From: an uncultured virus (IMG/VR IMGVR_UViG_3300042196_000264)
Taxonomy: Duplodnaviria; Heunggongvirae; Uroviricota; Caudoviricetes
Length of the DNA: 57,894 nucleotides
Virus record (IMG/VR): IMGVR_UViG_3300042196_000264
Direction: 5' to 3' (one strand)
The translations under genes were made by a program, and so were the position numbers. Positions within the stretch are counted from its first letter, which is position 1; each line of letters opens with the position of its first letter. Of this stretch, positions 5,921 through 38,636 are shown in pieces. The notes beneath the pieces are model-generated. The model was not told the DNA's origin, did not search any database, and was given only the letters and a program-made list of their open reading frames with translations.

Positions 5921-6148
5921 ATGTCCAGGTCCAGGCATGGGGCGCATGCCGGTGGCCCCGAGTGGCTCAGGTACCGGTCATGCCCGAGTGGACGAGCTCG
6001 TTGTGGGCTGTGCTCCGGCTCGCGCCTCGGCCGGCCGGTGCCCACGAGGATGACGGAGGAGGCTGTGACCGAGGCCCTCGCTGACCTCGAAAATGAGCGC
6101 GAGTGGATGCAGGTACTCGGCGACCCTTCCGAGTGGCCCGACGAGTGA
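5921..6148 (+). CDS. Hypothetical protein (Cys-containing)
   Basis: Abuts the previous gene; ORF only. Confidence 0.4.
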   Translation: MSRSRHGAHAGGPEWLRYRSCPSGRARCGLCSGSRLGRPVPTRMTEEAVTEALADLENEREWMQVLGDPSEWPDE

Positions 6149-7310: not shown

Positions 7311-7312
7311 GC

Positions 7313-8344: not shown

Positions 8345-10350
8345 CACCCATCCAGAAGATCAAGATCAAACGGGAGGCCAAGCGGGCCGTTCGTGCGTGG
8401 CGCATGCAGAAGATGAGCCCGACTGCGCCGGCCATGAGCAGGGCGAATGCGCCCTCGGTGCGGCGCTTTGCTCCAGGTACGCCGGTCGTGCCGCTGCATC
8501 CGCTCGTCCCGGACATCGAGTCGGATGTCGAAGTCTCGGTGATCTTTGGAACGTACAACAGGTTCAGGTCGCTCCGCAGGTGTGTGGACTCCGTGCGTGC
8601 CGCCTGCCTCGGGATCGCACACGAGATCATCATCTGCGATGGTGGATCCACAGATGGCTCGCTCGAGTGGCTCGAGAAGCAAGGTGACATCATCACGATC
8701 CACGGCGGACTAGATGGCGCTGTCAAGGCGTTCAACGCGTGCTTCGAGATGGTTCGCGGTCGGCACACGCTGACGCTCAATGATGACATCGCGCTCTCAG
8801 AGCCAGCCGTGCGGAACGGACTCGTCCACATGGGCGACCCCTATGTCGGACAGGTCGCCTTCGCGTTCGGATTCCCTGGCCATCCATCTGGGCTCCTGGA
8901 CTTCCATGGCGCCGCGTACCTCAACTACGGTCTCACACGAACGGGCCTTGCGCGCGCGATAGCAAAGTGCAGCGGTGGATTCTGGGATCCAGTCTACTAC
9001 ACGTACGGCGGCGACACAGAGTTGTCGATGTGGGTCAGGAGGCTCGGTTATAGCGTGGCCCGCGGTACCACCAGCACCCTCGTCGACTTTCACGACGACG
9101 ACGCTCTGCGGGCACGGAGCCACCACGTAGAGCAAGGCAGGTCAGTCACGATCTTCTACGCGAGATGGCCTGACGCCAGGTTCCTGACCTTCCGCGGGCC
9201 CATGCCCAAGCTTGGAGCCGCAGAGGTTCGGGCACTCTCGAAGCTAGAGCAGGGGCCGCTGCCTCAGGAGAGGTGGGAGTGTCTCAAGTCTGCGGACCCG
9301 AAGGTTGGAGATCTGCCAGTTTCGGTCGACCCGTCCCCCGAGCGCGTTCTGCACGTCTACATCCGCACCGATGATGACCCACAAGCCTCCATGGCTCAGG
9401 CCTTTCGTGAGATGGGTTCTCGTGGGTTCGCGTCGGTGGACTGGTTGTCGATGCCACCACACGCGCGAAACTCGGCCTGCCTCAAGGCGTCTGCCACTAT
9501 TCGCCCGACGCTCGTCTTCATGCAGATTCAGTCTCCTGACGCGATCGCCATCGAGACGATCCGTCAGATCCGGATGGACCCACAGCGGGACCCCGGATGC
9601 GTCGTCGTCCTGTGGTCAGGTGACGTGGGGCCCGTGAACGGTCCGTGGCCAGGACTTCAGGATGCGTGGAGCCACACCTACGCGAAGGTGGTGGATGCCA
9701 TGCTCTACACTGGGACCGGGCAAGTCGAGATCCAAAGGTCACGTGGCATGCTGAACGCTGCTTATCTCCAGATCGGCTTCGATGAGTCAAGATACTACCC
9801 GAGCTCAGATCCGTCATCCTACGGAACCCTGCATGACGCCGTGTTCCTGGGGCAGGACTACGGAGACCAATGGGCCTGTGTGCCAGACAACGACGTCGCG
9901 TTGAGGCGGAGGGTCGTAGAGGCCTTTGCGTCCGAACTCCCGCGCTTCTGCGCCTACGGAGGTGGGTGGGGGGCAGGGTATCTTCCACAGAGCCGCGCTG
10001 GTGACATCTACCGTGGGTCCCTCCTTGCGCTCTCCACGAGCCTGGTCTCGAATCTCGGGCGGTACACCAGCGACAGGATGATCCGCGCGATGGCCTGTGG
10101 AACGACCACGCTGGTCAAGCGTTTCGCGGACATGGAGGGCATGGGACTCGAGCACGGCAAAAACTGCCTCGTCTGGGACACTCCAGCGGAGGCAGTTGAT
10201 CTCGCCCGACACTGGCTCTCGCCGCAGCGGCGGGATGACCTCCTACAGATCGGACGTGCCGGGGCCAAGCTCATGAAGGAGCGTCATACGTGGGGCGTCA
10301 GGATCCGAGAGCTCGCCTACATCGTCAAGAAGCTTCGAGGCTGCCGATGA
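8338..10350 (+). CDS. Two-domain glycosyltransferase (GT2/GT-A plus C-terminal CgeB-like GT-B domain)
   Basis: [26 protein letters not shown]-terminus [30 protein letters not shown]. Start may be further downstream. Confidence 0.85.
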
Positions 10351-11426
10351 TCCCTATCTCCATGCCAGATCTGTCTGGCAACGAAGAGTCCTACGTCGTG
10401 GCAGCCATGAGGAGTTCGTGGATCTCTTCCACGGGTGAGTTCATCGACCGGTTCGAGTCCGAGTTCGCTGAAGTGTGCGGGGCGAAGTACGCCCTCTCCG
10501 TCTGCAACGGGACCGTGGCCCTTCACCTGGCCATGCTCGCCCTGGACGTTCGCCCCGGAGACGAGGTCATCGTCCCAGGCCTGACCTACATCGCGGCTGC
10601 AAACGCCGTGCGCTACGTCGGTGCTGAGCCTGTGTTCGTGGACGTCGACCCGGAGACCTGGTGTCTGAACCCGTCCCTGATCGAAGAGAGCATCACCACG
10701 AGGACCAGGGGGATCGTCGCCGTCCACCTCTACGGTCACCCCGCCGACATGGACCGCATCAACCACATCGCAGCGATCCATGGACTCTGGGTCGTCGAAG
10801 ACGCGGCCGAGGCCCACTTCGCGCGCTACAAGGATCGTCCCGTCGGGGGGCTCGCTAGGATCGGGACGTTCTCGTTCTATGGGAACAAGATCATCACCTG
10901 CGGAGAAGGTGGTGCAGTTGTGGTCTCGGATCCGCAGCTGTACACGAGGATGAAGACGCTCAGGGGTCAGGGAGTGGATCCTGACCGCAGGTACTACCAT
11001 CCGGTCACGGGGTACAACTTCCGTCTCACGAACGTTGCCTGTGCGATCCTGTGTGCGCAACTCGAGCGCGCAGCCAGCCTCATCGCCGCGAGAAGAAGGG
11101 TATTCGAGAGCTACAGCCAGCGTCTCGAGGGGAAGGTCCAACTCCAGCCCAGGGCCTCATGGGCGCAACCAGCCCCTTGGCTCTTCTCCATGCTCGCCGG
11201 GAACAGAGACGCGGTCGCGGACCGTCTCCGTGGCGCTGGCGTTGAGACCCGACCGTTCTTCGTGTCCATGGAGACTCTGCCGCCCTTCCGCGAGTCCTCC
11301 CTGAAGCGCAGGGCCCATCTGATGGAGACGGGGCGCCTCTCCAGGAGCGGGCTGAACCTGCCGACCTACCCACAGCTGACCGAGGAAGAGATCGGCATGA
11401 TCTGTGATACGATCGTCTCCGGATGA
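10347..11426 (+). CDS. DegT/DnrJ/EryC1 PLP aminotransferase, GDP-perosamine synthase-like
   Basis: WISSTG, NGTVALHLA, VHLYGHP, VEDAAEA, FSFYGNKIITCGEGG, GYNFRLTN. ATG 10347 overlaps the upstream stop. Confidence 0.92.
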   Translation: MIPISMPDLSGNEESYVVAAMRSSWISSTGEFIDRFESEFAEVCGAKYALSVCNGTVALHLAMLALDVRPGDEVIVPGLTYIAAANAVRYVGAEPVFVDVDPETWCLNPSLIEESITTRTRGIVAVHLYGHPADMDRINHIAAIHGLWVVEDAAEAHFARYKDRPVGGLARIGTFSFYGNKIITCGEGGAVVVSDPQLYTRMKTLRGQGVDPDRRYYHPVTGYNFRLTNVACAILCAQLERAASLIAARRRVFESYSQRLEGKVQLQPRASWAQPAPWLFSMLAGNRDAVADRLRGAGVETRPFFVSMETLPPFRESSLKRRAHLMETGRLSRSGLNLPTYPQLTEEEIGMICDTIVSG

Positions 11427-12373
11427 GCGACGCAATCGCGGACGGGCACAACGCGATCATGGAAGCGGTTGGTCGTTGCCGACCGCCTGTCGTTGTGGTT
11501 GAGATGCTCAGGAACTTTGGGGACGTGCTTCACTCCACCATCGTCGTGAGGCACATCAGGAAGACTGAGAGTTCACGTGTTGTCTGGGCGATCTCGAGTC
11601 GTTACGTCGAGCAATTCATACACTTCCTGCACGACGAGCTCGGGCCTCATGAGATCGCCGGACTCCCTGACCTTCCTGCATACCCCAACGACGCATCCGG
11701 TCGGATTTCCTGGGTAGAGGAGGCCAGGAACATCCGTGGGGTTGAGAGAGCATTCGGATGTGGCGTGCACCCGTGGGGATGGAGGTCTGGGTCGATCGTC
11801 GATGCCGTACTCGAGAACGCGGGGGTGCGCTCTCTCGCTGTGGAGAGAACCCCGTGGCTTCCGCTAGGTGAAGAGGAGCGTTCGTGGGCGCGTGTGTTTC
11901 TCGCAGAAAGAGGGATCTCAAGGTTCATCGCCGTCGAGCACGAGGCTGAGTCTGTGACCGGCCTGACGGATGACTTGCTGAGGATGGTATCAAGAAGATC
12001 CAAGATCCCCATGCTCATCATCGGTGCAAAGTCGTCAAGGATGGTCCCTGGTTCTGTGGATGCGAGAGGGATCAGCTTCCTCCAGGCCAAGTCGCTGATC
12101 TGTACTTCGTCGCTATTCTTAGGCTGCGCAAGCGGTCTGAGCGTGACGGCGGCGTCCAACGGATGCCTGGTGCCCGTGGCCGAAGTGGCTGAGCCTTCGC
12201 TGTGCATGGACGCGATCGGATACCTTTCGCCTGGACGTAGCCACATCAAAGTTCGTGGCATGTCCGCGCGTGAGCAGTGTTCTGAGATCCTTGACATGAT
12301 CTGCGCGCCAGCGGCTCAGGCGATGAGAACGTCTCGTAGATCTGCGGTTCTCAGAAGGAGGCATCGTCGATGA
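11423..12373 (+). CDS. Putative GT9 (heptosyltransferase-like) glycosyltransferase
   Basis: RNFGDVLHST near the N-terminus; LIC..SLFLGCASGLS near the C-terminus. Confidence 0.65.
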   Translation: MSDAIADGHNAIMEAVGRCRPPVVVVEMLRNFGDVLHSTIVVRHIRKTESSRVVWAISSRYVEQFIHFLHDELGPHEIAGLPDLPAYPNDASGRISWVEEARNIRGVERAFGCGVHPWGWRSGSIVDAVLENAGVRSLAVERTPWLPLGEEERSWARVFLAERGISRFIAVEHEAESVTGLTDDLLRMVSRRSKIPMLIIGAKSSRMVPGSVDARGISFLQAKSLICTSSLFLGCASGLSVTAASNGCLVPVAEVAEPSLCMDAIGYLSPGRSHIKVRGMSAREQCSEILDMICAPAAQAMRTSRRSAVLRRRHRR

Positions 12374-13098
12374 AGTGCAAGTGCCCATGCTGCGGAGGTG
12401 AATCGCACGAGGCGTTCTCGAAGACCGTGTTCAGGAGGTACACGGCTTCGTACATGGAGTGCTCATCGTGCATGACACTTTGGGTGATGAATCCGGTGTG
12501 GCTCAGCGATTCCCACGTGGATTATGTGGGCGCGGACAAGTCAGATGGAGGTGCCACGTGGAGAAGCGCGATGGTGAAGGAGGCCTTGCTCGAATTCTTC
12601 TCTTCGAGACGTGGGCCGTGGCTCGACTACGGGTCTGGATCTGGTCACCTTTCCAGGATGCTTTCGTCATCCGGAGTTGAGATGCTCAACTACGATCCGT
12701 ACAGAGGAGTCGACCAGTCTGGTGAAGGAAAGTTCTCCGTGATCTCCTGCATCGAGACCGTCGAGCATGTCTCCAATCCAACGGCACTCATCTCTGAGAT
12801 CTCGAGGAGGCTTGACGACGATGGAGTGCTGGTCATGAGCACGTGCCTGAGAGTCACGGGAGTCCACGGTGAGGCATGGAGCTACCTCGCTCCGGAGTTC
12901 GGGCAACACGTCACGTTGATGACAGAGGCCGGCCTGGCCTCCGCAGCACGAGCAGCTGGGATGGTGGCTCTTGGGAGATTGGTGTGCTTGGAGAACGAAG
13001 AACTCCAACTCCATGTCCTAGCCATGGATCATGTCATTGTGAGGTTGTCTAACGCGGGGTCGTTCAGGTGGGAACCCTACTTGAACTCGATCCTGTAG
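12370..13098 (+). CDS. Class I SAM-dependent methyltransferase with N-terminal Zn-ribbon
   Basis: CPCC..CSSC, LDYGSGSG, IETVEHV.NP, WSYLAP..GQHV. Confidence 0.85.
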   Translation: MKCKCPCCGGESHEAFSKTVFRRYTASYMECSSCMTLWVMNPVWLSDSHVDYVGADKSDGGATWRSAMVKEALLEFFSSRRGPWLDYGSGSGHLSRMLSSSGVEMLNYDPYRGVDQSGEGKFSVISCIETVEHVSNPTALISEISRRLDDDGVLVMSTCLRVTGVHGEAWSYLAPEFGQHVTLMTEAGLASAARAAGMVALGRLVCLENEELQLHVLAMDHVIVRLSNAGSFRWEPYLNSIL

Positions 13099-13520
13099 AT
13101 CGAGTTGTCTCCTTCTCTCCGAACCCACTGATACCCAAGAGCTACGTACATCGAGAATGCGGCAATGTTCTCGTCGTGAACCTTGAGATCGACTCCTGGT
13201 CTGCCCCTCAACCGTACGGTGCAGTGTAGGACCTCCATCATGGTCATCCCAATACCCATGCGTCTCGAGCCCGGGTGCACAGCGATGCCAAGTCGTGGCA
13301 TCTCGTACTGCGGCGGCCATCCACGAAGTATCCCGTAGGCTAGGATTCGCCTGTCGACCATGACGTACGCGCACCAGGATTCCTCCATGGACACGCGGAG
13401 GACATGATCTGCATCGAACGGATGTGGCCTGAAGTGTTGACTCTTAGGGTCGGCTTCAATGTCGACGAAGAAAGCAGCAAGGGCTTCCCTGTGCGAAGGC
13501 TTGAGTTCAACGATCTCCAT
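13077..13520 (-). CDS. GNAT family N-acetyltransferase
   Basis: LGIAVHPGSRRMGIG (motif A), VHDENIAAFSMYVALGY. Confidence 0.88.
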   Translation of the reverse strand: MEIVELKPSHREALAAFFVDIEADPKSQHFRPHPFDADHVLRVSMEESWCAYVMVDRRILAYGILRGWPPQYEMPRLGIAVHPGSRRMGIGMTMMEVLHCTVRLRGRPGVDLKVHDENIAAFSMYVALGYQWVRREGDNSIYRIEFK

Positions 13521-13933
13521 CAGTACGTCTTGTGCTGCTCGGCAACGACGGCCGTGGTTTCACCGGACGTCACGGAGGCGAAGTGCTTGTCGATGGCGTC
13601 CATGAGGCGTGACCTCTGGACGTTGAGGTCACATGCTCGCGCGATGAGCTTTCGGAGTCCGTCGAGGTCTTCGGCGTAGACCTTGACGAACTCATCGTGC
13701 GGCATCCTGCGGATCGCGTAGAGCACCTCCTGGTTGTGCCACATCTTCAGGCTCACGGTGCACAGCTTGTCGACGAGGCTTCCGAGTGTGTCCATGGGTA
13801 CGGGCTCGTGTTTGTCGTCCAAGTCGAGACGTGTTGCAGATGTAGATAGCCTGGGGAGGATCTTCGTCTCCCATTCCATGCGATCCCCTGCGCATGGGAT
13901 GAGCCCGAGGGCGGTGGCGTCGAAGTCGTTCAT
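13520..13933 (-). CDS. DUF4254-like protein
   Basis: TLGSLVDKL...KMWHNQE...LNVQRSRLMDAID. Confidence 0.6.
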   Translation of the reverse strand: MNDFDATALGLIPCAGDRMEWETKILPRLSTSATRLDLDDKHEPVPMDTLGSLVDKLCTVSLKMWHNQEVLYAIRRMPHDEFVKVYAEDLDGLRKLIARACDLNVQRSRLMDAIDKHFASVTSGETTAVVAEQHKTY

Positions 13934-14670
13934 CGTACAACCTCTCTGAGACGATCGATCATGGCCGTTATGCTCGGTGCGTAGGTGATGTCGCGCTCGT
14001 CCCAGATCGGGCAACCTAGCGGATGACCTGCGACGATCCGCGGGAGACGACCGCGGTTTTTTGCGGTGAAGCTGGCCACGGTGACACTGCTCAGCCGCGA
14101 GATCATCGCGATGCAGTTACCGCTCAGAGCAGACAGCGAGAGAAGGTTGTGGTCGCTGCGGTCGACCATGTTCGGCATCCAGTGTGGGTCATCGAGCCTT
14201 CCGGACAGGTAGAACGTCATGGCGTGGAACTGCATCGCTATTGCTTTCAGCCATCCGTTGATGTCCTGCACCGGCTGTCCGGAGAGTACGGGTCCGTTCT
14301 CCACGAGGATGCCGGGGCGGTCGCGGTTCTCCACGATGGGCAGGTCAATGGGAGGAGCGTCGATGTGTGCGATCTCAGGCAAACCGAGTGGGCGGGCTTG
14401 GATGTTCCAGGACTCGACTTGTGTTTCATGTGTGAGTCCGTGGCGTCCCATGACGCCGTCGACATGACCGAACCACAGGTTGATCGCGTGTGGCTCTCCG
14501 GTCTCATCCCAGAAGGGGATCCCCAAGTCCATCCAGAGGTATCGGTAGCGCGGGGCGCAATCGAGCTCGACACGAACGGTGTCGCGCAGGAGCGGCCAGA
14601 CGCGCCTGATGATCTCGCGTGTCATGATGACGTCGCCAGCGTGAAACTTGTTCGTGAGTACGACGTGCAC
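13930..14670 (-). CDS. Hypothetical protein, possibly glycosyltransferase-related
   Basis: HAGDVIMTR N-terminal motif; located in the glycosylation cluster. Confidence 0.55.
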   Translation of the reverse strand: MHVVLTNKFHAGDVIMTREIIRRVWPLLRDTVRVELDCAPRYRYLWMDLGIPFWDETGEPHAINLWFGHVDGVMGRHGLTHETQVESWNIQARPLGLPEIAHIDAPPIDLPIVENRDRPGILVENGPVLSGQPVQDINGWLKAIAMQFHAMTFYLSGRLDDPHWMPNMVDRSDHNLLSLSALSGNCIAMISRLSSVTVASFTAKNRGRLPRIVAGHPLGCPIWDERDITYAPSITAMIDRLREVVR

Positions 14671-14725
14671 GGTTAGCCATCATGCCATGGTGAAAGGCGT
14701 ACGACGCGCGAGTCCTCGGTGCCGT

Positions 14726-15686
14726 CTTGGATCTTCGTGTGGGTAAGCCATGGTGTTTAAGCCCGTGCACGCAGCATAGCCTGGATCTTCGTGTGAAGAA
14801 GAAGCGTGATGAGACCACGCCCGGTGTCATCGCAAACGACCCGGAGCATCCATCCTGGATCTTCGTGTGAGGAAGTCATGTGCTGCGACTGGCGGACTTC
14901 AGGCAGGTGTGGACGGTAGCATGCGCCCTGGATCTTCGTGTGAGAAAGAAGTGTGCTGCAAGTCCGGGGGACCGAGTTGTTTGCCCGCCGGATTTGCCTG
15001 GATCTTCGTGTGAGGAATATGTGTGCTGCAAGGGGAAAGCATCGTCCACGAGTACAACCTGCTGATCCCTGGATCTTCGTGTGAGGAAGATGTGTGCTGC
15101 AAGTTGTCGCGGCTGCGACCCTCGGGGTCGCAGAAGGGGCCTGGATCTTCGTGTGAGGAAGAAGTGTGCTGCAAGGGTGTGGCCCATGAGCTTGGGATAC
15201 ATGCTGACCGTGGTCCTGGATCTTCGTGTGAGGAAGAAGTGTGCTGCGAGAGCGAACCCAACTACGCCCGTAGCGGACCGGTGCGGGCCTGGATCTTCGT
15301 GTGAGGAAGAAGTGTGCTGCAAGATCTTGCGGAACCGAGATCTGTGCGATGCCGTGTGTCCTGGATCTTTGTGTGAGGAAGATGTGTGCTGCAAGTCGAA
15401 CTCTGCATCGGGACCGCCAAAGAGATCCTTCCTGGATCTTCGTGTGAGGAAGATGTGTGCTGCAAGCTTGACCTGCTTCCCGCTGTTCGCCACCAGGCCC
15501 GGATTCCTGGATCTTCGTGTGAGGAAGATGTGTGCTGCAAGTGCGAGCGCCGGTTGTGCGCACGCGATACGACTCACTCCTGGATCTTCGTGTGAGGAAG
15601 ATGTGTGCTGCAAGCCGGCGCTCTGGGTATGCGTATTCCAGCCTGACGTGCCTGGATCTTCGTGTGAGGAAGATGTGTGCTGCAAG
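14726..15686 (-). CRISPR. Cas-less CRISPR array: 14 repeats of 36 bp (three distal ones degenerate), 13 spacers
   Basis: + strand consensus CCTGGATCTTCGTGTGAGGAAGATGTGTGCTGCAAG starts at 14726, 14780, 14854, 14927, 14997, 15068, 15140, 15215, 15288, 15360, 15431, 15506, 15579, 15651. Unique spacers are 34-39 bp (distal one 18 bp). Internal palindrome ATCTTC-N7-GAAGAT. Degeneracy increases leftward, so the leader is placed on the right. Confidence 0.96.
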
Positions 15687-15738
15687 GGGACCCCCTGTCG
15701 CTACGCTGGCATGGTGCTGGGACCGTCGGCACTTGCGC

Positions 15739-15768
15739 ATCATGGCACGCGGGGCTAGGGCGCGTCAA
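15739..15768 (-). promoter_or_regulatory. Putative sigma70-like promoter of the CRISPR leader
   Basis: Minus strand TTGACG-N18-CATGAT with an extended -10 TG, about 50 bp before the first repeat. Confidence 0.5.
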
Positions 15769-15800
15769 CGTCCGGTCTTGCGTGCTAGTGCAAAGGCTCG

Positions 15801-16559
15801 TCACTGGTCGTGGTCTCGATGCATGGATCCACGAAGGCTATCTTCGCCGCCGATATGAGCGAAGGCGCCAGGGTCGAGTTGGACAACCCGAAGTCCAAGT
15901 GCGTCGAAGTTCATCTGAGCACCGCGTTCACCGGCCACAGGAGTGGCGTCGCATCCGAAGATCCTTGGTACGTCCACGGCTCGTATCATGTTCGGATTGA
16001 AGGTGTAGTGGGCGTTTCCACTGATCCAGTGCTCGTTCGCACGGATCCATCCGATACGATTCCCCGTGATGCAGTGGTTGTTCATGACGGGTTCTGAGTA
16101 CCGTCGGAGGCGTACCTGCCCGACCCTGGGGTTGCCGAGGTAGTGAGCCGCCGCATGAACCCACTGGGAGTCTGCACAGCAATTCCAGTCGTCCTCGAGA
16201 TGAAGGATCCATGGCAGCCCGACTTCCTCCGCGATCGCAGCGGCCCTGACCATCAGCCCCGTGACCGCGGGTCCGATGGGTACCACCGCATTGGCTGCCC
16301 CATTCTTGGCGAGGTAGACCTTCCGGAAAGCATGCTGATTCAGGATCTCTTCGCTGTGTTCATCGCGACTGTTCAACATCGCTACACCAACGATGTCGAA
16401 GCCACGGTTGGCGGTGTGGTTTCGCAGTGACTCGAGTGTCCGCGCGAGGAGCTTCGGCCGACCTCCGCATAGAACGGCAAGCACGACTCCCTTGCACGGC
16501 GGAGGGTCAAGCAGGTCCGGCTTCCGCATGGCGGCGCGCAGTTGGCTGGCCGTCGTCAT
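15801..16559 (-). CDS. GT-A fold glycosyltransferase
   Basis: GRPKLLARTLESL, WILHLEDDW, YTFNP, FAHIG. Confidence 0.75.
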   Translation of the reverse strand: MTTASQLRAAMRKPDLLDPPPCKGVVLAVLCGGRPKLLARTLESLRNHTANRGFDIVGVAMLNSRDEHSEEILNQHAFRKVYLAKNGAANAVVPIGPAVTGLMVRAAAIAEEVGLPWILHLEDDWNCCADSQWVHAAAHYLGNPRVGQVRLRRYSEPVMNNHCITGNRIGWIRANEHWISGNAHYTFNPNMIRAVDVPRIFGCDATPVAGERGAQMNFDALGLRVVQLDPGAFAHIGGEDSLRGSMHRDHDQ

Positions 16560-18481
16560 TTCTCCGCCTCCTCGGTCCATGGCAAACCAATCTGCGCCGT
16601 TCTCTGTCGGATGAGAGTTCCGTAAGACTCGTTCAGTTCGCAACCTATCCACTTGCGTCCGAGGCTCTCGGCCACAGCACCCGTGGTCCCAGAGCCCATG
16701 AATGGGTCCAGCACGGCACTGCCGATCTTGGAGCCGGCGAGGATGCAGCGCTCGGCAAGTCTCGACGGCATCGTGGCAAAGTGTGCCCCGTTGTATGGCT
16801 GAGTGGCGATCGACCAGACTGATCTGGCGTTTCGTTTCTCGCGGGCCCCTACCTTCAGCAACCCACCCATCGTCCGATGGGTATCATCACCGCTTTCGTA
16901 TCTGTCCACACCTCGGTGAGTGATGTTTCCTGGTGCCTTGTTGGTTGCCTGTTCTGCGATCGCATCGGCGTCGTAGTAGTAGCGCTCCGATTTCGACAGC
17001 AAGAACACGTACTCGTGTGACTTCGTCGGACGATCCTCAACAGATTCTGGTTTAGGATTTGGCTTCGAGTTGTGGGTAAGAATGCCGGAGCTGAGTGCGA
17101 ATAGGTGCGGATCATCCTCGACACCAACGTCGTAGACTTGCCGGCAGCGCGCCTTTCGGATCTCAACGACCTCTTCGGCGTCCTTCTCGTTCCAGTGTCC
17201 CGACCGCTGAAACCGAATCTCGCCACGGAACGCTGGCCACTTCTTGCCGAAGCCGTCCGCCATTACCGGAGACAGGACCAAACGGAATCCGAGACGTGCG
17301 GACAGCACCCGGAGGTCGCGCTCGAGGTTGTAGTTCCGGGTGAACACGATCCGCCATCGTTCGTTCTTTGCGTCCCAATGCCCGTCGCCAGCGAGGTACC
17401 CGTCAAGATACGCGCGAAGGAAGTCGTTGCTGTATCGCCAGCACACCGTGGCGAGGCACTTGTCCTTGGCGGTCCGGCCAGACACCAACTCAGCGATGAT
17501 GGCAACAATCAACTTGCCGTACACCCGGATGTTCTGTTTGTTTCCGTCCGTCGTGTAGGTCGCCGTGCCTCCGTAGGACTGGGCGACACTCAACACCCGG
17601 TTGAGCCTGTCCGTCTCGCTGGCGTTGCCGGCGATCTGGATCGTGTCCTCGCTCATCGAACCTTCCGCCAAGTACAGGCCCGCTAGCCAGGCGGCGTCGT
17701 TACCAACGTGGGCCGGCGTCTTCGGCGCGTCTGGTTCCGGAAGGGTCACCCGCTGGAGCGTGTGGCCTACCTGGATCTCGTCAGCGCGGAGCAATCCGTG
17801 AGATGTCGGGAAGCGATGGTTAGGGGTGCAGGCGATCCGCTCGCCGCTGCGGAGTACGAGTTCCAATTCGTCCGCCTTCCGCGAGGTCCGCGACCAGCCG
17901 AGCACCTGCGTCCACTTTTGGCCGTTCCATAACTTCACCGTGGCCGGGTTCAGCCGAGCTACGTCTTTGACCGTGATCGGCATGTCTCCCTTCTGCGTCC
18001 GGGCGTAAACGACCGTTCCGCCCGACAGGCACCATATGATGTCACTGCGCAGGTACCAGCCGTCGTCTCGGAGTGCGAGCGCAACCTGCCATGGTATTCC
18101 GCAAATGTCCTTCGGCTTGAGTCCGGGTGCGATTTTGCTCGGGCTCTTGCTGTACACGCCGGCCCTTGCCACTTCTCGGTCCAGGAAGGCCGAATTCTTA
18201 CCCATGCCACCACCCGCCGAGCTCGCGTACGAGTCACCAAGATTGAGCCACACCGTTCCATCATCACGGAGGGCGCGGCGCACGAGCCGGAATACGTCGA
18301 CAAGGGATTCGACGTATTCCGAGGGTGTAGGCTCCATCCCGATCTGATCTGGATGTCCGTAATCACGGAGTTTCCAGTATGGTGGCGACGTCACGCAACA
18401 CTGGAACAGGGACTCCGGGAGTTCCTCGAGCGTTCGCCTGCAGTCGCCAATGAGCATTCGATTGAGAGAGAAGTCACCCAT
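16556..18481 (-). CDS. N4/N6 DNA methyltransferase (beta class) interrupted by an intein
   Basis: TSPPY, LKPKD, WYLRSDIIW|intein|SKPNP.PES.EDRPTKSHEY, HFATMP, VLDPFMGSGTTG. Confidence 0.93.
   Translation of the reverse strand: MGDFSLNRMLIGDCRRTLEELPESLFQCCVTSPPYWKLRDYGHPDQIGMEPTPSEYVESLVDVFRLVRRALRDDGTVWLNLGDSYASSAGGGMGKNSAFLDREVARAGVYSKSPSKIAPGLKPKDICGIPWQVALALRDDGWYLRSDIIWCLSGGTVVYARTQKGDMPITVKDVARLNPATVKLWNGQKWTQVLGWSRTSRKADELELVLRSGERIACTPNHRFPTSHGLLRADEIQVGHTLQRVTLPEPDAPKTPAHVGNDAAWLAGLYLAEGSMSEDTIQIAGNASETDRLNRVLSVAQSYGGTATYTTDGNKQNIRVYGKLIVAIIAELVSGRTAKDKCLATVCWRYSNDFLRAYLDGYLAGDGHWDAKNERWRIVFTRNYNLERDLRVLSARLGFRLVLSPVMADGFGKKWPAFRGEIRFQRSGHWNEKDAEEVVEIRKARCRQVYDVGVEDDPHLFALSSGILTHNSKPNPKPESVEDRPTKSHEYVFLLSKSERYYYDADAIAEQATNKAPGNITHRGVDRYESGDDTHRTMGGLLKVGAREKRNARSVWSIATQPYNGAHFATMPSRLAERCILAGSKIGSAVLDPFMGSGTTGAVAESLGRKWIGCELNESYGTLIRQRTAQIGLPWTEEAEK
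17069..18031 (-). mobile_element. Intein (321 aa) with LAGLIDADG homing endonuclease
   Basis: Starts CLSGGT; block B TPNHRF; motifs WLAGLYLAEGS and YLDGYLAGDG; block F VYDVGVE; ends ILTHN followed by Ser. Confidence 0.93.
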
Positions 18482-18492
18482 GCCCCATGGAC

Positions 18493-19353
18493 CTACTTCC
18501 TGCTGCTGCGGATCGATGCCCGAGCCCAGTTGGCGTTTCGCTTCATACCGCGGCGCACTTCGAGGCGTTTTGCGGCTGCCTGCTCTGGGGTGAGCGCGAA
18601 CTGTCTGGCCACCCCAGGGAAGTCCTGCGGGTAGCCGGTCTTCACCTTGTTGTTCGGCTTCGCGGGAACCTCCCAGAGACAGGCGTGCTTCGCGAGTGGA
18701 CTATGCGGGCTGTGGAAGAGCCGAGTGTCCTTCCCATGAACATAGAAGTCGATCGCAGACCCCACGTCGATGCAACTCGGCACCGTCCTGCCTGCGTCAG
18801 CCGCTGCCTTCCAGTACCTGTAGGCGATGATGCAGGCCACTGGACCTGCGGAGAGCAGGATCGGCTTGTCCTGGGCGAGAAGCTTCAGGACCAGCGCATC
18901 TACGTCGAAGCGTTCGTTCACGCCGTTCTGTGGCACCTGAACGTCGCCACGACCAGACGACACGACGACGACCTTCTTGCGATGGATCTGGTCCAGGAAA
19001 AGTCGCCGCGCCTTGCCGTAGTTGGCGTTCTGGAAGATCGTCGCGAACGTGCGCTGGTGAGGCGACGTCGTGACGTGCTTCGAGAAGAACTTCGTCGCCG
19101 GCTGAACGCAGCACGGCGGAGAAGTGGCTACGCCGTATCCTGGAAGAGCCGAACACAAGGCCTGGAGCAGTGGCTCTACGAGCCACGACTCCTTGCCTGG
19201 AGAGGCCTTCCAACCCGAGGCCATACGCTTCCGCTTACCCTCGAGCACCGCGTGTTCACCGTCATGAAATCGCGCGAGGGCGAACGGCTCGCCCTCCGTG
19301 ACCATCCTCGAAATTTCGGCGAAATCGAGGTCGAAGTGGCGCCTGAACCTCAC
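18493..19353 (-). CDS. GT-D fold (DUF1792-like) protein
   Basis: PFALARFHDGE, LLSAGP, IDVGSAID. Confidence 0.65.
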   Translation of the reverse strand: MRFRRHFDLDFAEISRMVTEGEPFALARFHDGEHAVLEGKRKRMASGWKASPGKESWLVEPLLQALCSALPGYGVATSPPCCVQPATKFFSKHVTTSPHQRTFATIFQNANYGKARRLFLDQIHRKKVVVVSSGRGDVQVPQNGVNERFDVDALVLKLLAQDKPILLSAGPVACIIAYRYWKAAADAGRTVPSCIDVGSAIDFYVHGKDTRLFHSPHSPLAKHACLWEVPAKPNNKVKTGYPQDFPGVARQFALTPEQAAAKRLEVRRGMKRNANWARASIRSSRK

Positions 19354-20459
19354 TCCGGTGAACCCTCGGCCGCGGGCTCACCCGCAGTGACCGGAGGGGA
19401 CTCTTCGGAGAGGAACCGCCAGCCCTGATCGCGGTACCACGCGATCGATCGTGCCTGGCTCTCGCCGATGCCAGCAGCGTTGTGGAGAGCGGTCTGGTCG
19501 ACGGCGACAGACTTGGTTCCGCCCGTATCTCCCTGGTAGGGGAGCACGACAGTCTGGATCCCAAGAGCCGCTGACAGATGCAGGCCCCATCCGAAATTTC
19601 GGTCGACGGCCCTCGGGGTCGTCACCGCGACGGAGAGCCAGGAGCGCTTCAGCACCCATCCCTGCATGCCGAAGTCCACGAGCGACGTCTCGGCGAGCTT
19701 GCTGTTCGGACCTCCTACGGACTCCGGAACGCCGTTTGCTGCGTAGCGGATCCCGCTGACGGCGACGATCTTGTCGTTCTTGGCCTCGGCGACGGCAGCC
19801 TCGAGCCACTTCGGCTCGACGATGACGTCGTCGTCCAGGATCGCCACCACCTCGGCGTCTGCCTCGGCGGCCATCATGAACCGCGGCCACGGCCCCCAGT
19901 TCAGGTTCGAGCGAACCGTGATCATGGTCGCGAGCACCTGCTCGTCCAGGACGGCGGCGCCGGGGTTCACCCAGCACATGATCGCCTTCGGGCGGATCGT
20001 GGATTCCTGGATCGCGGTCACCTGTGGTCGGAGAAGCGTGGGGCGGTTCCACGAGCAGAGCACCACGACGAGGTCCGCAGGAGGCGGCGGCTGAACCTCC
20101 GGTGGCGGCTGGACATGCCGTGTCGTGATCACGAGTCCGCCGGTCTGCGTCTGCGACACTGGCGGCGCGATGGCGGGAGCCGGTGCGGCTTGCATGGGTT
20201 GGGGGCCGCCGGGGACCTGATACATCGGGGCTGAGGTGATGGGTGCTTGCACCTGGGGGACGATGGGCACATGGGTCACCCTGTTCGTCACGTGCGGCTG
20301 CGCTGCGGCCGGGCCGGGAAGCGGGCGTTGGGGCATGTACGGTTGCCCACCGACACTGACGTTGATCATGCCGTTGTGCGGCATGGCGCCTTGTTGAGAG
20401 GCCCACATCGCCTCTCGCGCGGCTCGGGCTTCGGGACTCTTTCGCTTGCCTGGGATCAT
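19350..20459 (-). CDS. GT-A glycosyltransferase with Pro/Gln-rich N-terminus
   Basis: VVLCSWNRP, SNLNWGPWPRF, AILDDDVI. Confidence 0.7.
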   Translation of the reverse strand: MIPGKRKSPEARAAREAMWASQQGAMPHNGMINVSVGGQPYMPQRPLPGPAAAQPHVTNRVTHVPIVPQVQAPITSAPMYQVPGGPQPMQAAPAPAIAPPVSQTQTGGLVITTRHVQPPPEVQPPPPADLVVVLCSWNRPTLLRPQVTAIQESTIRPKAIMCWVNPGAAVLDEQVLATMITVRSNLNWGPWPRFMMAAEADAEVVAILDDDVIVEPKWLEAAVAEAKNDKIVAVSGIRYAANGVPESVGGPNSKLAETSLVDFGMQGWVLKRSWLSVAVTTPRAVDRNFGWGLHLSAALGIQTVVLPYQGDTGGTKSVAVDQTALHNAAGIGESQARSIAWYRDQGWRFLSEESPPVTAGEPAAEGSPE

Positions 20460-20475
20460 GACGGTTTCCTCCCCA

Positions 20476-21402
20476 TCAGGGACTGGTTGGCGTTGGCTGA
20501 TCTTCGCACGGTTTCACCGTGCCGAAAAGATCGATCTGTTCTCTCGTGCGCAGGAGCCTGTCGGTGGCGGTCTGGAAGTAGCCAGGCTCGATCTCCCAGC
20601 CGAGGAACCTGCGGCCCAGCGAGATCGCAGCCACTCCGGTGGTTCCGCTCCCCATGAAGGGGTCGATGATGAGGTCGCCGCGGTTGGAGAAGTCGCGGAT
20701 CAGCTGTTCGATGAGCTTGAGTGGCTTGGGACAAGGATGGTCGGGTCGGTTCTTGCCCTGCTCAGTGGGGTACGACCACTTCGCCGATCGACCTCCTCCA
20801 TTCCACTTCCCGCTCTTGTGGTGGATAACGATCGTCTCGTGGGCTTGAGCAGGTCCCTGTCCGTTCAGCTGCGGCGTGGCGTTCGTCTTGTCCCAGATCC
20901 CCGTTCGGAAGTACGTCCGCCTGTCGATCTGCTGCCAGAGATGAGCCTCCTCCGCGCTGGAGAAGAAGATCGCCCACTTCCGTGCGATCCGAAGGCACTC
21001 GAGCCCGGCGTTATGGAGCGCGATGACGGACAGTCCGCAAAGCCTTCGCTCCTCTGGGCGAGAACCGAGCGACCTCGCTCCGGCGAGAACACGATCGTGG
21101 TACGGAGGATCCGTGAGCACCGTGGCACCGTGGCCGTCTGGCACGGATGGCATGCCATCCGTAGGGTCCATGCAGTCGCCACAGACGACCTCCCACCCAG
21201 GCCCACTGGCCTTGACGAGAGCCATACTCGCCGTGGCTTTCGAGAAACGGGAATCGGAGCACGCCTTGTGCTTCGGCTTGTGCTTCGGCTTCGGCTTCGG
21301 CTTCGGCTTCGGCTTCGGCTTCGGCTTCGGCTTCGGCGCAACCTTCTTCGAAGGTGAGCTTTTGTCCTTCTTCGGCTTCTTGGTGGATGGTTTCTTGGTC
21401 AC
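20476..21402 (-). CDS. N4/N6 DNA methyltransferase with Lys/Pro-rich N-terminal tail
   Basis: GDCMD, TDPPY, HPCPKP, IIDPFMGSGTTG. Confidence 0.88.
   Translation of the reverse strand: MTKKPSTKKPKKDKSSPSKKVAPKPKPKPKPKPKPKPKPKHKPKHKACSDSRFSKATASMALVKASGPGWEVVCGDCMDPTDGMPSVPDGHGATVLTDPPYHDRVLAGARSLGSRPEERRLCGLSVIALHNAGLECLRIARKWAIFFSSAEEAHLWQQIDRRTYFRTGIWDKTNATPQLNGQGPAQAHETIVIHHKSGKWNGGGRSAKWSYPTEQGKNRPDHPCPKPLKLIEQLIRDFSNRGDLIIDPFMGSGTTGVAAISLGRRFLGWEIEPGYFQTATDRLLRTREQIDLFGTVKPCEDQPTPTSP
21283..21336. repeat. (CTTCGG)9 hexamer tandem repeat encoding (PK)n
   Basis: Nine perfect copies, plus degenerate copies to the left. Confidence 0.95.
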
Positions 21403-21755
21403 TTGCCGTCCCTCCCTGGTTCACCACACCCACCAGATGTTGCGCTGCATCCGCCGCCACCGCCACCGCCAGCCGCAGATTCGTATCCGTTGCCCGCATC
21501 GCCCGCACCGCCAGCCGCAGCTTCGGCTGTTCCGCCACCACTGCCGCCACCTCCTCGACCGCCATGGCCACCACCGCCACCGCCTCCACCGCCGATCATG
21601 ATGATCCTCACATGTGGGTCCACCTTGATATAGCCCCCATCCCTCGGGACACGTCTCCGTATGAACATGACCGCTGCGAACACGGCCCAGATGAGAAGCG
21701 CTGACGCGGCGATGGACGCGGCGATGAATGCGGTGAGGATGATCAGATCTGGCAC
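21399..21755 (-). CDS. Gly-rich membrane protein
   Basis: N-terminal hydrophobic helix followed by RRR and poly-Gly. Confidence 0.55.
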   Translation of the reverse strand: MPDLIILTAFIAASIAASALLIWAVFAAVMFIRRRVPRDGGYIKVDPHVRIIMIGGGGGGGGGHGGRGGGGSGGGTAEAAAGGAGDAGNGYESAAGGGGGGGCSATSGGCGEPGRDGK

Positions 21756-21794
21756 CGGCCGACCGTAGCACTTACCGTGCGCGACGGAAAGTGG

Positions 21795-22406
21795 TTACGC
21801 GACCCTAGTGCAAGAAGACCGCAGACGCCCGAATCTCGCCTTTGCAGCGGCTACCGCGTGAGCGTAGCTTCGCTGCTTCTCCGTAAGGCCGCCTGAGGCC
21901 AGCGCATCCCTGACGTTCTTGGACCCGGCGAAATAGCTCGCCATGGCGAGCTGTTCGTTGTCGTCGAACTGCTGGAGCAGCACCGAGATCAGGCTCGTCC
22001 CCATCGTGATGTTCGCGACGGGGTCCTCGGGTCGATCCTGGATCCCAAGTCTGCTGGCGATCCCCGCACTCGTCTTCGGCATGAGTTGCATGAGCCCCAC
22101 CGCACCGACGCTGCTGCGTGCTTTCGGGTTGAAGTTCGACTCGACGTGGATCGTCCCGAGGACCAGGTCTCCATCGACGCCAAACCGATCCGCCTGCTCC
22201 TCGACGATCCCAGCGTACAGCGGGATCCGCTTCGCCTCTTCTGATCTGAAGCCGCCATCCGTGAAGTCGCAACCAGCCCACCGTTCATCGAATGCGGTCG
22301 TGGCCCTGGCCGAGGTCGTCGACCTGCGCCTCGCGGACAGAGCCCTCCCCGCCGCCGCAGCTGCAAGCGCGGCGGCTCCGATGATCACGTATTGGAGTGG
22401 CTTCAT
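21795..22406 (-). CDS. Lytic transglycosylase (SLT) with N-terminal membrane anchor
   Basis: IHVESNFNPKARSSVGAVGLMQLMP, NITMGT; the usual AYNAG motif reads SYFAG. Confidence 0.9.
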   Translation of the reverse strand: MKPLQYVIIGAAALAAAAAGRALSARRRSTTSARATTAFDERWAGCDFTDGGFRSEEAKRIPLYAGIVEEQADRFGVDGDLVLGTIHVESNFNPKARSSVGAVGLMQLMPKTSAGIASRLGIQDRPEDPVANITMGTSLISVLLQQFDDNEQLAMASYFAGSKNVRDALASGGLTEKQRSYAHAVAAAKARFGRLRSSCTRVA

Positions 22407-34232: not shown

Positions 34233-34267
34233 GCCTCCTCTTCGCTGCCACAGCTTGTGTACCCCCC

Positions 34268-35894: not shown

Positions 35895-38636
35895 ATGGGG
35901 GACGCGAAGCTCGAGTCCAGGAAGAAAGAGATCGCTAGGTACCTCGCGTGCCTCGATCCGAAGGCCGATGCCTTCTCCTTCCAGACGTTCGACGACACGA
36001 AAAAAGACGACACGCTCACGCGGCAGTTTCACGGGCCGTTCGACGAAGACCGCTTCTACGAGTTCTACGGCTTGACCCTACGCTCAGCCGGGATCCACGT
36101 CGTCGTCAATCGCACCGACTTCCAGGGGCTGGCGAACAAGAACATCCTGGGCTGCAGGGCGATCTTCCTCGATTTCGATGAGGGCGAGCCGCCCGGAGAA
36201 CTCCTCGCCGCGCTCTCGCCGACGATGCAGGTGCGGAGCCGCAGAGGTCCGCACCTCTACTGGTGTCTATCGGAAGAGGCCTCGGTCGAGGACTGGCAGG
36301 CCGCCATGGCCGCCGTGCTGGCGCGCTGGGGCGCAGACCCCTCCTCCGGGCGCACTGGCGCCGACCCTCACGGTCAGGTGCTCACCGGCGACCGCAAGAA
36401 GCCCGCCAAGGTGCCCCCGTGCCAGAAGATGCGGATCCCAGGCTTCGACAACTCGAAGAAGAAGCCTGGACTTCACGTTAAGCTTGAATACGCTTATCCA
36501 GAGCGCCGGTACACGCTCGCCCAGATCGTCGAGGCCCTCGGGGCCGATGCCCCTAAGCGCGCACCCGTGCCCATGCGCGCTGGGCCATCCAAGGACCATC
36601 CGCTTGCTGAGCGCATCGAGCGGGCGCGACGCTACCTCGAGGCCGTCGCCGGCGCCGCCGAGGGCGGCCGCAACAACCACGTCGTCGGCAACGCGGCTCC
36701 GATCGGTGGCGACTTCGGCCTAACAGAGCAGGAGTTCTGGCCGATCCTGCGCGACTGGAACACCCGCAAGAACACACCACCGCTCGAGGAGAAGGAACTC
36801 GCGGCCATCCTGACCGCTTCCTACGGATATAGGACATCTCCACTTGGTTGTCGCCTCGACGAGCACTCGCAGTCCTACACGCGCAAAACGGAAGCTCACA
36901 GGCAAGACGAGGAGTCCAGCTGGGAGAGCCTCATCAACGAGGTGGACAAGGTCGCCGAGGACATACCAGAGGTCGATGCGACCCTGGAACATCAGCCAGA
37001 CTTCCAGGTACACGGAGATGGGCTCATGCCAACGAAGGCAGCCCCAGAGCCAGCACGGGCATGGCTGTACGGCCCGGAGAGGCCAGACCTTCCGGATGAG
37101 GAATACGAAGTCGATGAGACCGAGGTTGAAGAGATCTGTGATGAGGAGATCTCTCCGTTCATCTCGAAGCCTGGCCCCGACAAGTTCGCGATGAGCGAGT
37201 TCGGCAACATGATGCGGTTCCTCAGCAAGCACGGCACCAACGTGCGCTTCTGCGAGACGATGGGGTGCTGGCTCTACTGGGATGGGAAGCGCTGGGTCGA
37301 GGACCGCGATGCCCTCGAGGGCGAGGCCTACCGGGCGACAGGCGCAGTACGATCGATGGCGGACACGTTCTTCAACAACCTGCAGAACAAGGTCACGCTG
37401 CTGCCGCTCGAGGAGCAGCAGGACTGGCGGGACTTCTGCTTGCGCAGCGTGACCGAAACACAGGTGTCCGCTGCGCTCGCGAAGGCTGGGAGGCGACGGA
37501 GGATCGCGATAGCGCCGTCTCTGCTCGACCGGCACCACCACATTTTGAACACGGCGATGGGCCCGTTCGACTTGAAGCGCGGCGTGTTGATGACGCCGCA
37601 GCGTCGGCTCTACCTGAGCAAGATCACCCAGGTGTCATGCGGTCAGTTCGACGACTGCCCAGCGTGGTTCAATTTCCTCTGCAGGATCTTCCGGAAACCA
37701 GATGGAACCGTCGACCTCGAGCTCATCTATTTCCTGCAGAAGGCCATCGGCTACAGCCTCACCGGTGAGACCGGTGAGCAGTGCCTGTTCTTGATGTATG
37801 GCACCGGTGCCAACGGCAAAACAACCTTCCTGAACGCGATCCTGGACATCATGGGCGAGTACGGCATGCAGTCCGACTTCTCGACCTTCCAGGAACAGCA
37901 GGGCGAGCGCGTGCGCAGCGACCTCGCGCGCCTGCACCGAGCTCGTTTCGTGGCCGCCAACGAGCCCAAGCAAGGCAAGCGGCTCGACGAGGCCACGATC
38001 AAGGGCCTCACTGGGCAAGACAAGATCGTCTGCCGCTTCCTGTTCAAGAACGAGTTCACCTACGTACCTACCTTCAAGGTGTGGCTCTCGAGCAACCACA
38101 AACCGGAGATCCGCGGAACCGACGAGGGGATCTGGCGTCGGCTCATGCTGATACCCTTCACGTCGTTCATCGCTCCGGAAGAGCGGGACCCTGAGTTGCC
38201 CGAGAAGCTCAAGCGGGAGAGGTCCGGGATACTTCGATGGGCGATGGAGGGCTCAAGACACTGGTACGAAGAGGGGCTGAAGCCACCCGCAGTCGTGCAG
38301 GAAGCCACGAAGGGCTACCGCGAAGAGATGGACATCCTCGGCAACTTCCTCGCGGCACGCTGTCTGCTCAAGGATGACGCCGTCACGCGCTCGCGTGTGC
38401 TCTACACCGCGTACAAGCGGTGGGCCGGTGAAGCCAACGTCTACGTGATGTCGGAACCCCGTTTCAGCCGCCAGATCAAAGACCGCGGATTCCGGATCCG
38501 GTCGATGAGCCACGGCAACGAATTCTGCGGCGTCGGGCTCCTCGAGGACCCCGACAAGGCTACGCATGGCGGTGACGCTAGGTCTGGCGACCACGAGCGC
38601 GGCCGGGAGCGCGAGTGGTCCAGGGACCGGGACTGA
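35895..38636 (+). CDS. Primase-helicase (AEP/RepB-like N-terminus, PriCT, D5/P4-family SF3 helicase)
   Basis: IFLDFD, GPHLYW, MRIPGF, EGGRN, YWDGKRW, GTGANGKTT, IKGLTGQD, NHKP, GIWRR. Confidence 0.93.
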   Translation: MGDAKLESRKKEIARYLACLDPKADAFSFQTFDDTKKDDTLTRQFHGPFDEDRFYEFYGLTLRSAGIHVVVNRTDFQGLANKNILGCRAIFLDFDEGEPPGELLAALSPTMQVRSRRGPHLYWCLSEEASVEDWQAAMAAVLARWGADPSSGRTGADPHGQVLTGDRKKPAKVPPCQKMRIPGFDNSKKKPGLHVKLEYAYPERRYTLAQIVEALGADAPKRAPVPMRAGPSKDHPLAERIERARRYLEAVAGAAEGGRNNHVVGNAAPIGGDFGLTEQEFWPILRDWNTRKNTPPLEEKELAAILTASYGYRTSPLGCRLDEHSQSYTRKTEAHRQDEESSWESLINEVDKVAEDIPEVDATLEHQPDFQVHGDGLMPTKAAPEPARAWLYGPERPDLPDEEYEVDETEVEEICDEEISPFISKPGPDKFAMSEFGNMMRFLSKHGTNVRFCETMGCWLYWDGKRWVEDRDALEGEAYRATGAVRSMADTFFNNLQNKVTLLPLEEQQDWRDFCLRSVTETQVSAALAKAGRRRRIAIAPSLLDRHHHILNTAMGPFDLKRGVLMTPQRRLYLSKITQVSCGQFDDCPAWFNFLCRIFRKPDGTVDLELIYFLQKAIGYSLTGETGEQCLFLMYGTGANGKTTFLNAILDIMGEYGMQSDFSTFQEQQGERVRSDLARLHRARFVAANEPKQGKRLDEATIKGLTGQDKIVCRFLFKNEFTYVPTFKVWLSSNHKPEIRGTDEGIWRRLMLIPFTSFIAPEERDPELPEKLKRERSGILRWAMEGSRHWYEEGLKPPAVVQEATKGYREEMDILGNFLAARCLLKDDAVTRSRVLYTAYKRWAGEANVYVMSEPRFSRQIKDRGFRIRSMSHGNEFCGVGLLEDPDKATHGGDARSGDHERGREREWSRDRD

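Follow-up and report, generated by a model that had tools for sequence, protein, structure and literature searches.

Which effector could a CRISPR (clustered regularly interspaced short palindromic repeats) array serve when it lies on a phage genome with no recognisable CRISPR-associated (cas) gene beside it, and against whom would it act? The question is raised by a 57,894-nt stretch of DNA from an uncultured virus of the Caudoviricetes (IMG/VR record IMGVR_UViG_3300042196_000264), hereafter called the window, in which an array of CRISPR repeats stands between genes for sugar modification (Table 1). The array itself is real and phage-borne. It is most likely a functional or recently functional CRISPR array on a large tailed-phage-like element (120 kb or more, from sediment and soil), and most likely helps the phage against related phages. 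With somewhat less than even confidence, we favour the explanation that the array is read from the minus strand and guides a Cas effector encoded in the other ~62 kb of the same phage genome, against related competing phages.

The array shows what is generally expected of CRISPR loci, namely regular near-identical repeats separated by unique spacers of similar size. The 36-nt repeat consensus reads CCTGGATCTTCGTGTGAGGAAGATGTGTGCTGCAAG on the plus strand and CTTGCAGCACAC-ATCTTC-CTCACAC-GAAGAT-CCAGG on the minus strand, where a 6-bp hairpin lies 5 nt from the 3' end. The copies start at 14726, 14780, 14854, 14927, 14997, 15068, 15140, 15215, 15288, 15360, 15431, 15506, 15579 and 15651, and their mismatches to the consensus in this order are 11, 7, 5, 2, 1, 0, 1, 2, 1, 1, 0, 0, 0 and 0; the five copies at 15068, 15431, 15506, 15579 and 15651 are thus identical. 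Spacers 1 to 13 measure 18, 38, 37, 34, 35, 36, 39, 37, 36, 35, 39, 37 and 36 nt, and no two are alike. Twelve of them therefore fall between 34 and 39 nt, and the truncated spacer 1 (18 nt) sits between the two most decayed copies. The repeat search grouped 13 copies together and listed the decayed 14th under a separate family, and Tandem Repeats Finder scored the last 3.5 array units alone. The 14 repeats and 13 spacers counted by a first-pass annotation of this DNA were borne out by copy-by-copy alignment.

The array is probably transcribed on the minus strand, because its low-coordinate end is decayed, the flank at its high end behaves like a module, the sole promoter-like site lies in that flank, and conservation within the repeat is lopsided. 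Both marks of array polarity are found, with decay at the low end and a conserved 108-nt flank at the high end. In the sediment DNA run X1, a second contig (6622 bp, depth 42.7 versus 35-39) carries the last repeat followed by a version of the flank 15687-15794 that differs by 16 letters and 3 gaps; this contig diverges beyond 15794, exactly at the end of the upstream gene. The 108-nt flank behaves as a module travelling with the array. Within 13800-16800, the sequence TTGACG-18-CATGAT (minus strand, 15768 to 15739) is the sole promoter-like match, where 0.6 +/- 0.7 were expected. The leader with this motif proposed at first pass was hence recovered as a flank of 114 nt and a site that is a consensus match only. 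A further contig of X1 agrees with the window from 15770 upward and is unlike it before that point; it may represent an array-less relative or one with a rearranged array.

As to the repeat itself, only 2 of 224 cells are mismatched at plus-strand positions 1-16, against 29 of 280 at positions 17-36 (Fisher 2.7e-6). Since the mismatches are concentrated at positions 17-36, the conserved part is the 16 nt abutting each spacer in the minus sense. A guide whose 5' handle comes from the repeat requires just such an invariant stretch at this place. The repeat sense given by the first-pass annotation, with the hairpin 5 nt from the 3' end, reads as it had been written there and is the better supported of the two.

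Evidence on the target comes from spacer 13, which resembles part of the D5-type primase gene of this phage. The two differ at five positions, of which four are third codon positions and the fifth changes K to R. The peptide encoded by spacer 13 agrees with the own primase in 11 of 12 residues, compared with 6-7 for the other 11 full-length spacers and a maximum of 8 in 36 shuffles. In the protein collection, the 98% relative of the primase (P0007) has K like the window, and an 82% relative has the R of the spacer. Because the differences to the own primase are mostly at third positions, spacer 13 came from a related phage and not from this genome. A minus-sense guide made from it has the sense of the mRNA, and would therefore pair with DNA and not with the transcript. 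The 5' flank of the primase site in the minus-sense reading, where a type V effector looks for its protospacer-adjacent motif (PAM), is GGACTT, which is T-rich. The other 11 full-length spacers had no match in the phages, plasmids or loci compared. Likewise, blastn of the array against phages gave no match, a 27-nt match between the array and a Halorussus plasmid (E 0.3) was read as chance, and the primase used as query found no relative in viral contigs.

Parts of the region 11000-20000 are present in 11 DNA runs. At least half of the sampled words were held by three of these, all from sediment (X1, 0.98, which is possibly the source; X2, 0.83; X3, 0.74), and a soil run, X4, holds 0.38. When run contigs were placed on window positions 12000-19000, those of X2 covered 12000-14944 and 14915-15024, and those of X3 covered 12841-14955 and 14927-15026. 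The window, X2 and X3 therefore have spacers 1-4 and the low-side flank in common. On the other side, spacer 13 is unchanged in an X2 contig, and an X3 contig spans 15657-19000, from the last repeat outward. Stretches of the array for which X2-X4 gave no contig were left out of the evidence. In X1 the summed depth over parts of the array is 95-210x, compared with 35-39x beside it. A contig of X4 holds two repeat copies around a 36-nt spacer that is absent from the window. This different spacer, together with the shared trailer-side spacers 1-4, is spacer turnover between populations, which is no proof of current acquisition. Consequently the first-pass claim that the array is actively acquiring spacers is not established, and no cas1 or cas2 is present in the window.

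Within the 58-kb window, no cas genes lie next to the array or elsewhere. Pfam gave no Cas family, and no RuvC/TnpB, HNH or HEPN family, in 82 open reading frames (ORFs; 52 + 30), and PHROGs gave no Cas protein in 39 ORFs. PADLOC, applied to 40 ORFs, found none beyond two weak helicase-domain rows of ORF 34070-35893 (type IV DinG, 3.8e-6; Cas3 of type I-D, 0.0017); this ORF matched 26 helicase families, of which the top one was a type IV restriction enzyme (1e-25). Genes for Cas12m, the effector of type V-M, were sought in the window by tblastn with 57 homologues (best E 0.056) and with a six-frame profile (best E 1; control, the gene of phage G001 described below, 7.7e-213), and neither search found one. 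The Cas12m homologue P0036 had no match in the window either. These scans bear out the statement of the first-pass annotation that the 58 kb hold no cas gene, and what remains after them is an effector outside the window or from the host, as it had supposed. Six of eight window proteins are on record, by exact sequence, from one 119,894-bp metagenome contig, so the window is about half of that contig.

The repeat was then sought in sequence collections. An exact 30-mer of it had no match in viral contigs or in 185,579 species genomes, and an exact 21-mer had none in metagenome contigs or in the species genomes. The hairpin-plus-tail pattern with a free loop gave two single coding matches in viral contigs. 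No Rfam family reached the gathering score in the window, and at E<=10 the region 14600-15900 gave four chance-level rows, none of a CRISPR-DR family. No cas-bearing host genome sharing the repeat was found among the species genomes or metagenome contigs. An anti-repeat was also sought in the window; the best match was 11 nt (E 0.29), and none is present. With no match in Rfam or in three public collections, the repeat cannot be assigned a subtype, as had already been concluded at first pass. The possibility, raised there as well, that the repeat is identical to that of a well-classified system was checked, and the repeat is absent from the collections searched.

Two relatives of the sugar cluster carry arrays of their own. 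The glycosyltransferase at 8338-10350 led to L001, a 52-kb sediment contig (SDBV01000590.1), with 48% identity (55% for GDP-mannose dehydratase, GMD). In L001 a homologous methylase/sugar cluster ends in an array (16009-17961) whose 36-nt repeat occurs in 22 full and 5 truncated copies, 27 in all, with spacers of ~35 nt. The L001 array is like that of the window in its homologous sugar/methylase cluster, its 36-nt repeat and the lack of a cas gene in 20 kb, and unlike it in its unrelated repeat sequence and its 27 copies. On one strand its repeat forms a 10-bp hairpin (-19.4 versus -13.7 kcal/mol) plus a 12-nt tail ending GTTGAAGC. A Cas12m repeat model matches 12 copies of this array on one strand with 10-13 bits, and it is the opposite strand that folds better and has this end; no Cas12m homologue is encoded in L001. 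A 19-mer of the L001 repeat had six single matches in viral contigs, all within one conserved coding sequence. The leader of the window has no similarity to those of L001 or G001. Synteny was rejected as a guide to the strand, since the sugar genes of L001 are arranged differently from those of the window, and the methylase block and the glycosyltransferase gene give opposite answers. In the L001 repeat, the hairpin loop differs between copies with the stem kept; three truncated copies stand at one end, and the array has a 134-nt interruption.

The second relative was reached by alignment of the window and L001 glycosyltransferases, which gave 23 viral loci, among them L030 with arrays. L030 belongs to record G001 (IMGVR_UViG_3300050505_000468), a phage genome of 138,061 bp with a completeness rating of 100%, in which 39 copies of the repeat are spread over five places. 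Three of these five places lie beside GMD, epimerase and glycosyltransferase genes homologous to those of the window, 72-80 kb from a cas12m gene at 110760-112700. The product of this gene (P0020, 646 aa) matches Cas12u1 of PADLOC (1e-75), Cas12m chains in the PDB (6e-46 and 4e-14) and PF07282 of Pfam, and an array begins 41 nt past its stop codon on the same strand. Such phages can thus have arrays at a distance of 72-80 kb from the gene for the effector. Like the window, G001, a V-M phage, has arrays beside a homologous sugar-gene cluster, there far from the effector gene. In the G001 loci (L039-L045, L030, L046), three array leaders share a motif ending TCTCTGA(C/A)AA right before the first repeat. 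Directly upstream of one G001 array lies a gene for a 906-aa protein (G001:32111-34831, minus strand, equal to L030:2362-5082, plus strand) that starts with a signal-peptide-like stretch and contains a beta-propeller and two CxxCH haem motifs, which is unusual in a phage.

Cas12m was followed further among viruses. P0020 has 57 homologues in the protein collection, and 43 viral loci of IMG/VR (L046-L088), on contigs as long as 406 kb, encode such proteins. An array of 36-nt repeats with 70-76-nt spacing follows the gene on its strand in 29 of these 43; several loci are duplicates from a single phage. Twenty-two phage repeats linked to Cas12m aligned without gaps; all end in AC and 21 of them in GAC. 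Their hairpin (14-19/29-34) is paired in 93% of cells with two-sided changes in all six pairs, and none of 500 shuffles reached its covariation score. The family signature consists of a GCAA..GCC 5' part, this hairpin, a pseudoknot (7-11/20-24) and a GAC 3' end, and eight published Cas12m guides listed in Table S5 of PMC11013384 share the GAC end and the form of the 22 phage repeats. According to PMC11013384, Cas12m binds DNA without cutting, uses a T- or C-rich PAM, needs no tracrRNA (trans-activating CRISPR RNA) and processes its guides itself. A 2026 preprint presents one myxophage Cas12m as the first in phage. Phage-borne V-M systems look far commoner than in print, and the Extended Data or supplementary tables of PMC7162821 may already list phage Cas12m-like systems. 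In L049, two spacers (8185-8220 and 8335-8366) match overlapping sites at 100% within 5126-5188; the small gene concerned lies 0.8 kb upstream of cas12m. In L088, the spacer 7776-7805 matches 26 of 27 nt at 6103-6129, inside the 5' part of cas12m. Self-targeting spacers combined with a non-cutting, DNA-binding effector suggest self-regulation. A PAM comparison was tried and dropped, for the self-target flanks in other Cas12m phages are TGC, AGG, TTC and TTT, and have no rule in common against which the CTT of the window could be set.

Is the window array then of type V-M? It is like V-M in its 36-nt repeat, in full-length spacers that fall within the 34-40 nt of that type, and in having no anti-repeat or tracrRNA and no cas1 or cas2 (PMC11013384; PMC10442227). 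In both, ~12 unpaired nt precede a hairpin in the 3' half of the repeat, and the flank of the window's one target-like site is T-rich. It is unlike V-M in that its repeat ends in CCAGG and has neither GCAA..GCC nor the covarying 14-19/29-34 register, and in that no cas12m lies in the window. Because the repeat fails the V-M signature and shares only dimensions and layout, the array was not filed as type V-M.

We infer which strand is read, how the guides are laid out, where the effector is encoded and of which class it is, and what happens at the target; the sequence of events would be as follows. In the phage, minus-strand transcription would proceed from the array's own leader (15800 to 15687), and processing of the transcript would yield guides in which the conserved 3' portion of the repeat (hairpin 3' arm + CCAGG) is retained directly 5' of the spacer. 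Such a layout would be that of type V (Cas12-type) guides rather than that of Cas6-processed class 1 guides. An effector outside the window may then use the guides against related phages, which would result in superinfection exclusion. The first candidate for its source would be the other ~62 kb of the phage contig, as in G001, and the host would be the second. A more specific version, which is speculative and which we consider rather unlikely as stated, is that the array serves an unclassified compact type V effector in the phage's other half, with a guide handle of 16-24 nt ending in GAAGAUCCAGG and not in GAC; by binding DNA without cleavage, the effector would perhaps silence the replication genes of relatives.

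Several results weigh against the explanation favoured here. Only 1 of the 12 full-length spacers matches anything, and that to a homologue; the true protospacer was not found. No effector was recognised in the 58 kb (62 kb of the contig lie beyond the window), and in two word-limited searches none of the Cas12m homologues found comes from the 119,894-bp contig. G001 shares with the window only the sugar genes and two small ORFs (7 of 174 genes), so that its precedent is one of analogy, not kinship. The covariance model of the 22 Cas12m repeats did not match either strand of the window array at E<=10, the window repeat resembles these repeats at shuffle level (126 and 114 of 300 shuffles reach the best score), and it ends in CCAGG, not GAC. 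The hairpin is weak (-4.1 kcal/mol, z -0.79), with 50 of 200 shuffles folding equally well. Furthermore, the plus-strand repeat can be read as 4 nt, a hairpin and a 12-nt tail ending GCTGCAAG, which is like a class 1 handle, and the variant copy at 15360 keeps one stem pair only as U-G, in the plus sense.

One alternative is that the array borrows the class 1 (type I or III) Cas machinery of an unsequenced host, plus-strand transcripts being cut at the hairpin and the 12-nt tail serving as the handle. We consider it somewhat unlikely. Class 1 repeats have a conserved 8-nt 3' end of the form ATTGAA(A/G)(C/G), and the plus-strand end GCTGCAAG fits 5 of these 8 positions, but it is the least conserved part of the array's repeat. 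The L001 array, with its stable 10-bp hairpin and 12-nt tail on one strand, would suit the same machinery. A plus-sense guide from spacer 13 would be complementary to the primase mRNA, as type III needs, but the plus-sense flank of the primase site, GTA, is not known as a type I PAM. In the plus sense, moreover, the decayed repeats would sit at the leader end and the decaying part would be the handle itself, the conserved flank would be the trailer, and no promoter-like site lies upstream on that strand. Phage arrays with host-like repeats that possibly use host Cas are already described in PMC7162821, but the present repeat is absent from the 185,579 species genomes.

The remaining alternatives account for less. 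A decaying relic, captured from a host or from another phage and having no working effector, would agree with the lack of cas genes in 58 kb, the three decayed repeats, the truncated 18-nt spacer and the weak hairpin. We regard it as improbable in view of the five identical repeats, the others with a difference at a single position, and the nearly invariant 16 nt beside the spacers; the array is also kept in at least three samples, a fourth has other spacers, and the leader-side spacer matches a gene of close relatives. An unrecognised effector among the family-less ORFs of the window is more improbable still. Many ORFs have no Pfam or PHROG match, including those of ~534, 415 and 361 aa, but both neighbours of the array are sugar-related, the 82 ORFs hold no RuvC/TnpB, HNH or HEPN domain and the six-frame Cas12m search stopped at an E of 1. 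Furthermore, the 534-aa protein ends in a membrane-anchor-like stretch, and a 541-aa ORF is mostly an Arg-rich shadow frame. The last alternative is a mis-assembled host fragment, which had been named at first pass as well. Assemblers break at repeats, and the Logan contigs of X1 are indeed broken inside the array. However, the X1 depth is even on either side of the array (34.9 and 39); the X2 and X3 contigs join the array to the same flanks on both sides; and L001, a related contig, likewise carries an array in a cluster of this kind. Because other sediment runs join the same array to the same flanks, the array is not mis-assembled, and the probability left to this alternative is negligible.

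The gene content of the window, as read by Pfam, is that of a large tailed phage or a similar element. It includes a collagen-repeat protein (a probable tail fibre) together with an SLT lysozyme, an esterase, an amidase, a Gp3-like recombination directionality factor, a helicase, the D5-type primase and three DNA methylases, one of them split by an intein. The sugar cluster extends over 6384-20459 and holds GMD, an epimerase, a DegT aminotransferase, several glycosyltransferases, and methyl- and acetyltransferases. The protein upstream of the array has no Pfam match of its own; its Atlas feature score is 0.97 to viral clusters that have PF00535 in 20-25% of their members. In the family of the downstream neighbour, 13 of the 15 long homologues scanned carry an S-adenosylmethionine (SAM) methyltransferase, GT9 or GT41 domain. 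Since both neighbours are glycosylation-related, the array is embedded in the sugar cluster and neither neighbour is a Cas candidate; its first-pass description as inserted in a glycosylation cluster, with glyco-related genes on its flanks, is a fair one. Megablast of 9000-22000 and tblastn of both flanking proteins gave no match in phages. Elsewhere in the window, ARAGORN places a tRNA-Thr (GGT) at 47427-47504 on the minus strand, inside a DNA methylase ORF of the opposite strand (47280-48719, plus), and one of the two calls may be wrong. An AbiEii/DUF6036-like nucleotidyltransferase (54022-54618, plus strand) and a weak ART-PolyVal ADP-ribosyltransferase match (44941-45906, minus strand) are possible defence or counter-defence genes.

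Table 1 Positions of the array, its parts, its putative target site and selected genes in the window
Feature	Position	Strand	Remarks
CRISPR array	14726..15686	-	14 copies of the 36-nt repeat and 13 spacers; decay at the low-coordinate side (trailer)
Repeats 1-3, the most decayed (mismatches 11, 7, 5), with truncated spacer 1	14726..14889	-	16 nt CACACGAAGATCCAGG (minus sense) nearly intact
Spacer 13 (newest), adjoining the leader	15615..15650	-	minus sense encodes HVRLEYAYPERR
Leader-like flank, 114 nt	15687..15800	-	~88% identical in a second contig of run X1; also in X2 and X3
Promoter-like site TTGACG-18-CATGAT	15739..15768	-	TG before the second hexamer; consensus match only
Spacer-13-like site in the phage's own D5-type primase gene	36474..36509	+	31/36 nt over the full spacer
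Downstream neighbour	13930..14670	-	36 homologues; domain elsewhere fused to SAM methyltransferase, GT9, GT41
Upstream neighbour, candidate GT-A/GT2-like glycosyltransferase	15801..16652	-	stop 114 nt before the array
N6/N4 DNA methylase with intein bearing a LAGLIDADG homing-endonuclease domain	16556-18481	-	Pfam
Collagen triple-helix repeat protein (PF01391, 1e-32)	1-1853	-	covers 9-, 18- and 126-nt tandem repeats at 340-1192

Taken alone, the window array is one more case of a phage that carries guides with no machinery recognised beside them, and mainly of use as a marker of phage-against-phage conflict in sediments; its significance would be greater if the repeat leads to a new compact effector. 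Mini-CRISPR arrays of archaeal viruses take part in interviral conflicts with one or two spacers and with repeats near-identical to those of host arrays, and prophages of Clostridioides difficile carry CRISPR arrays whose repeats are near-identical to the host's. Like both of these, the present array is cas-less and virus-borne and has a spacer that is probably directed against close relatives, which would imply superinfection exclusion. Unlike the archaeal-virus mini-arrays, it has 13 spacers, and no host array with its repeat was found in the collections searched. A cas-less phage array directed against related phages is already a known arrangement, here with an unclassified repeat. Arrays of huge phages, as described in PMC7162821, have a median of six repeats, mostly lack acquisition genes and often lack interference genes. 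Some of their spacers target other phages, type V-U variants are noted among them, and they have been proposed to use host Cas or to repress the target without cleavage (PMC7162821). The window array is like them in belonging to a large phage, in having no acquisition machinery or recognisable interference gene nearby, and in carrying a spacer that matches a gene of another phage; it is unlike them in its 14 repeats against a median of six, in a repeat that matches nothing in the collections searched, and in a contig of 120 kb against the 200-kb limit for 'huge' phages (PMC7162821).

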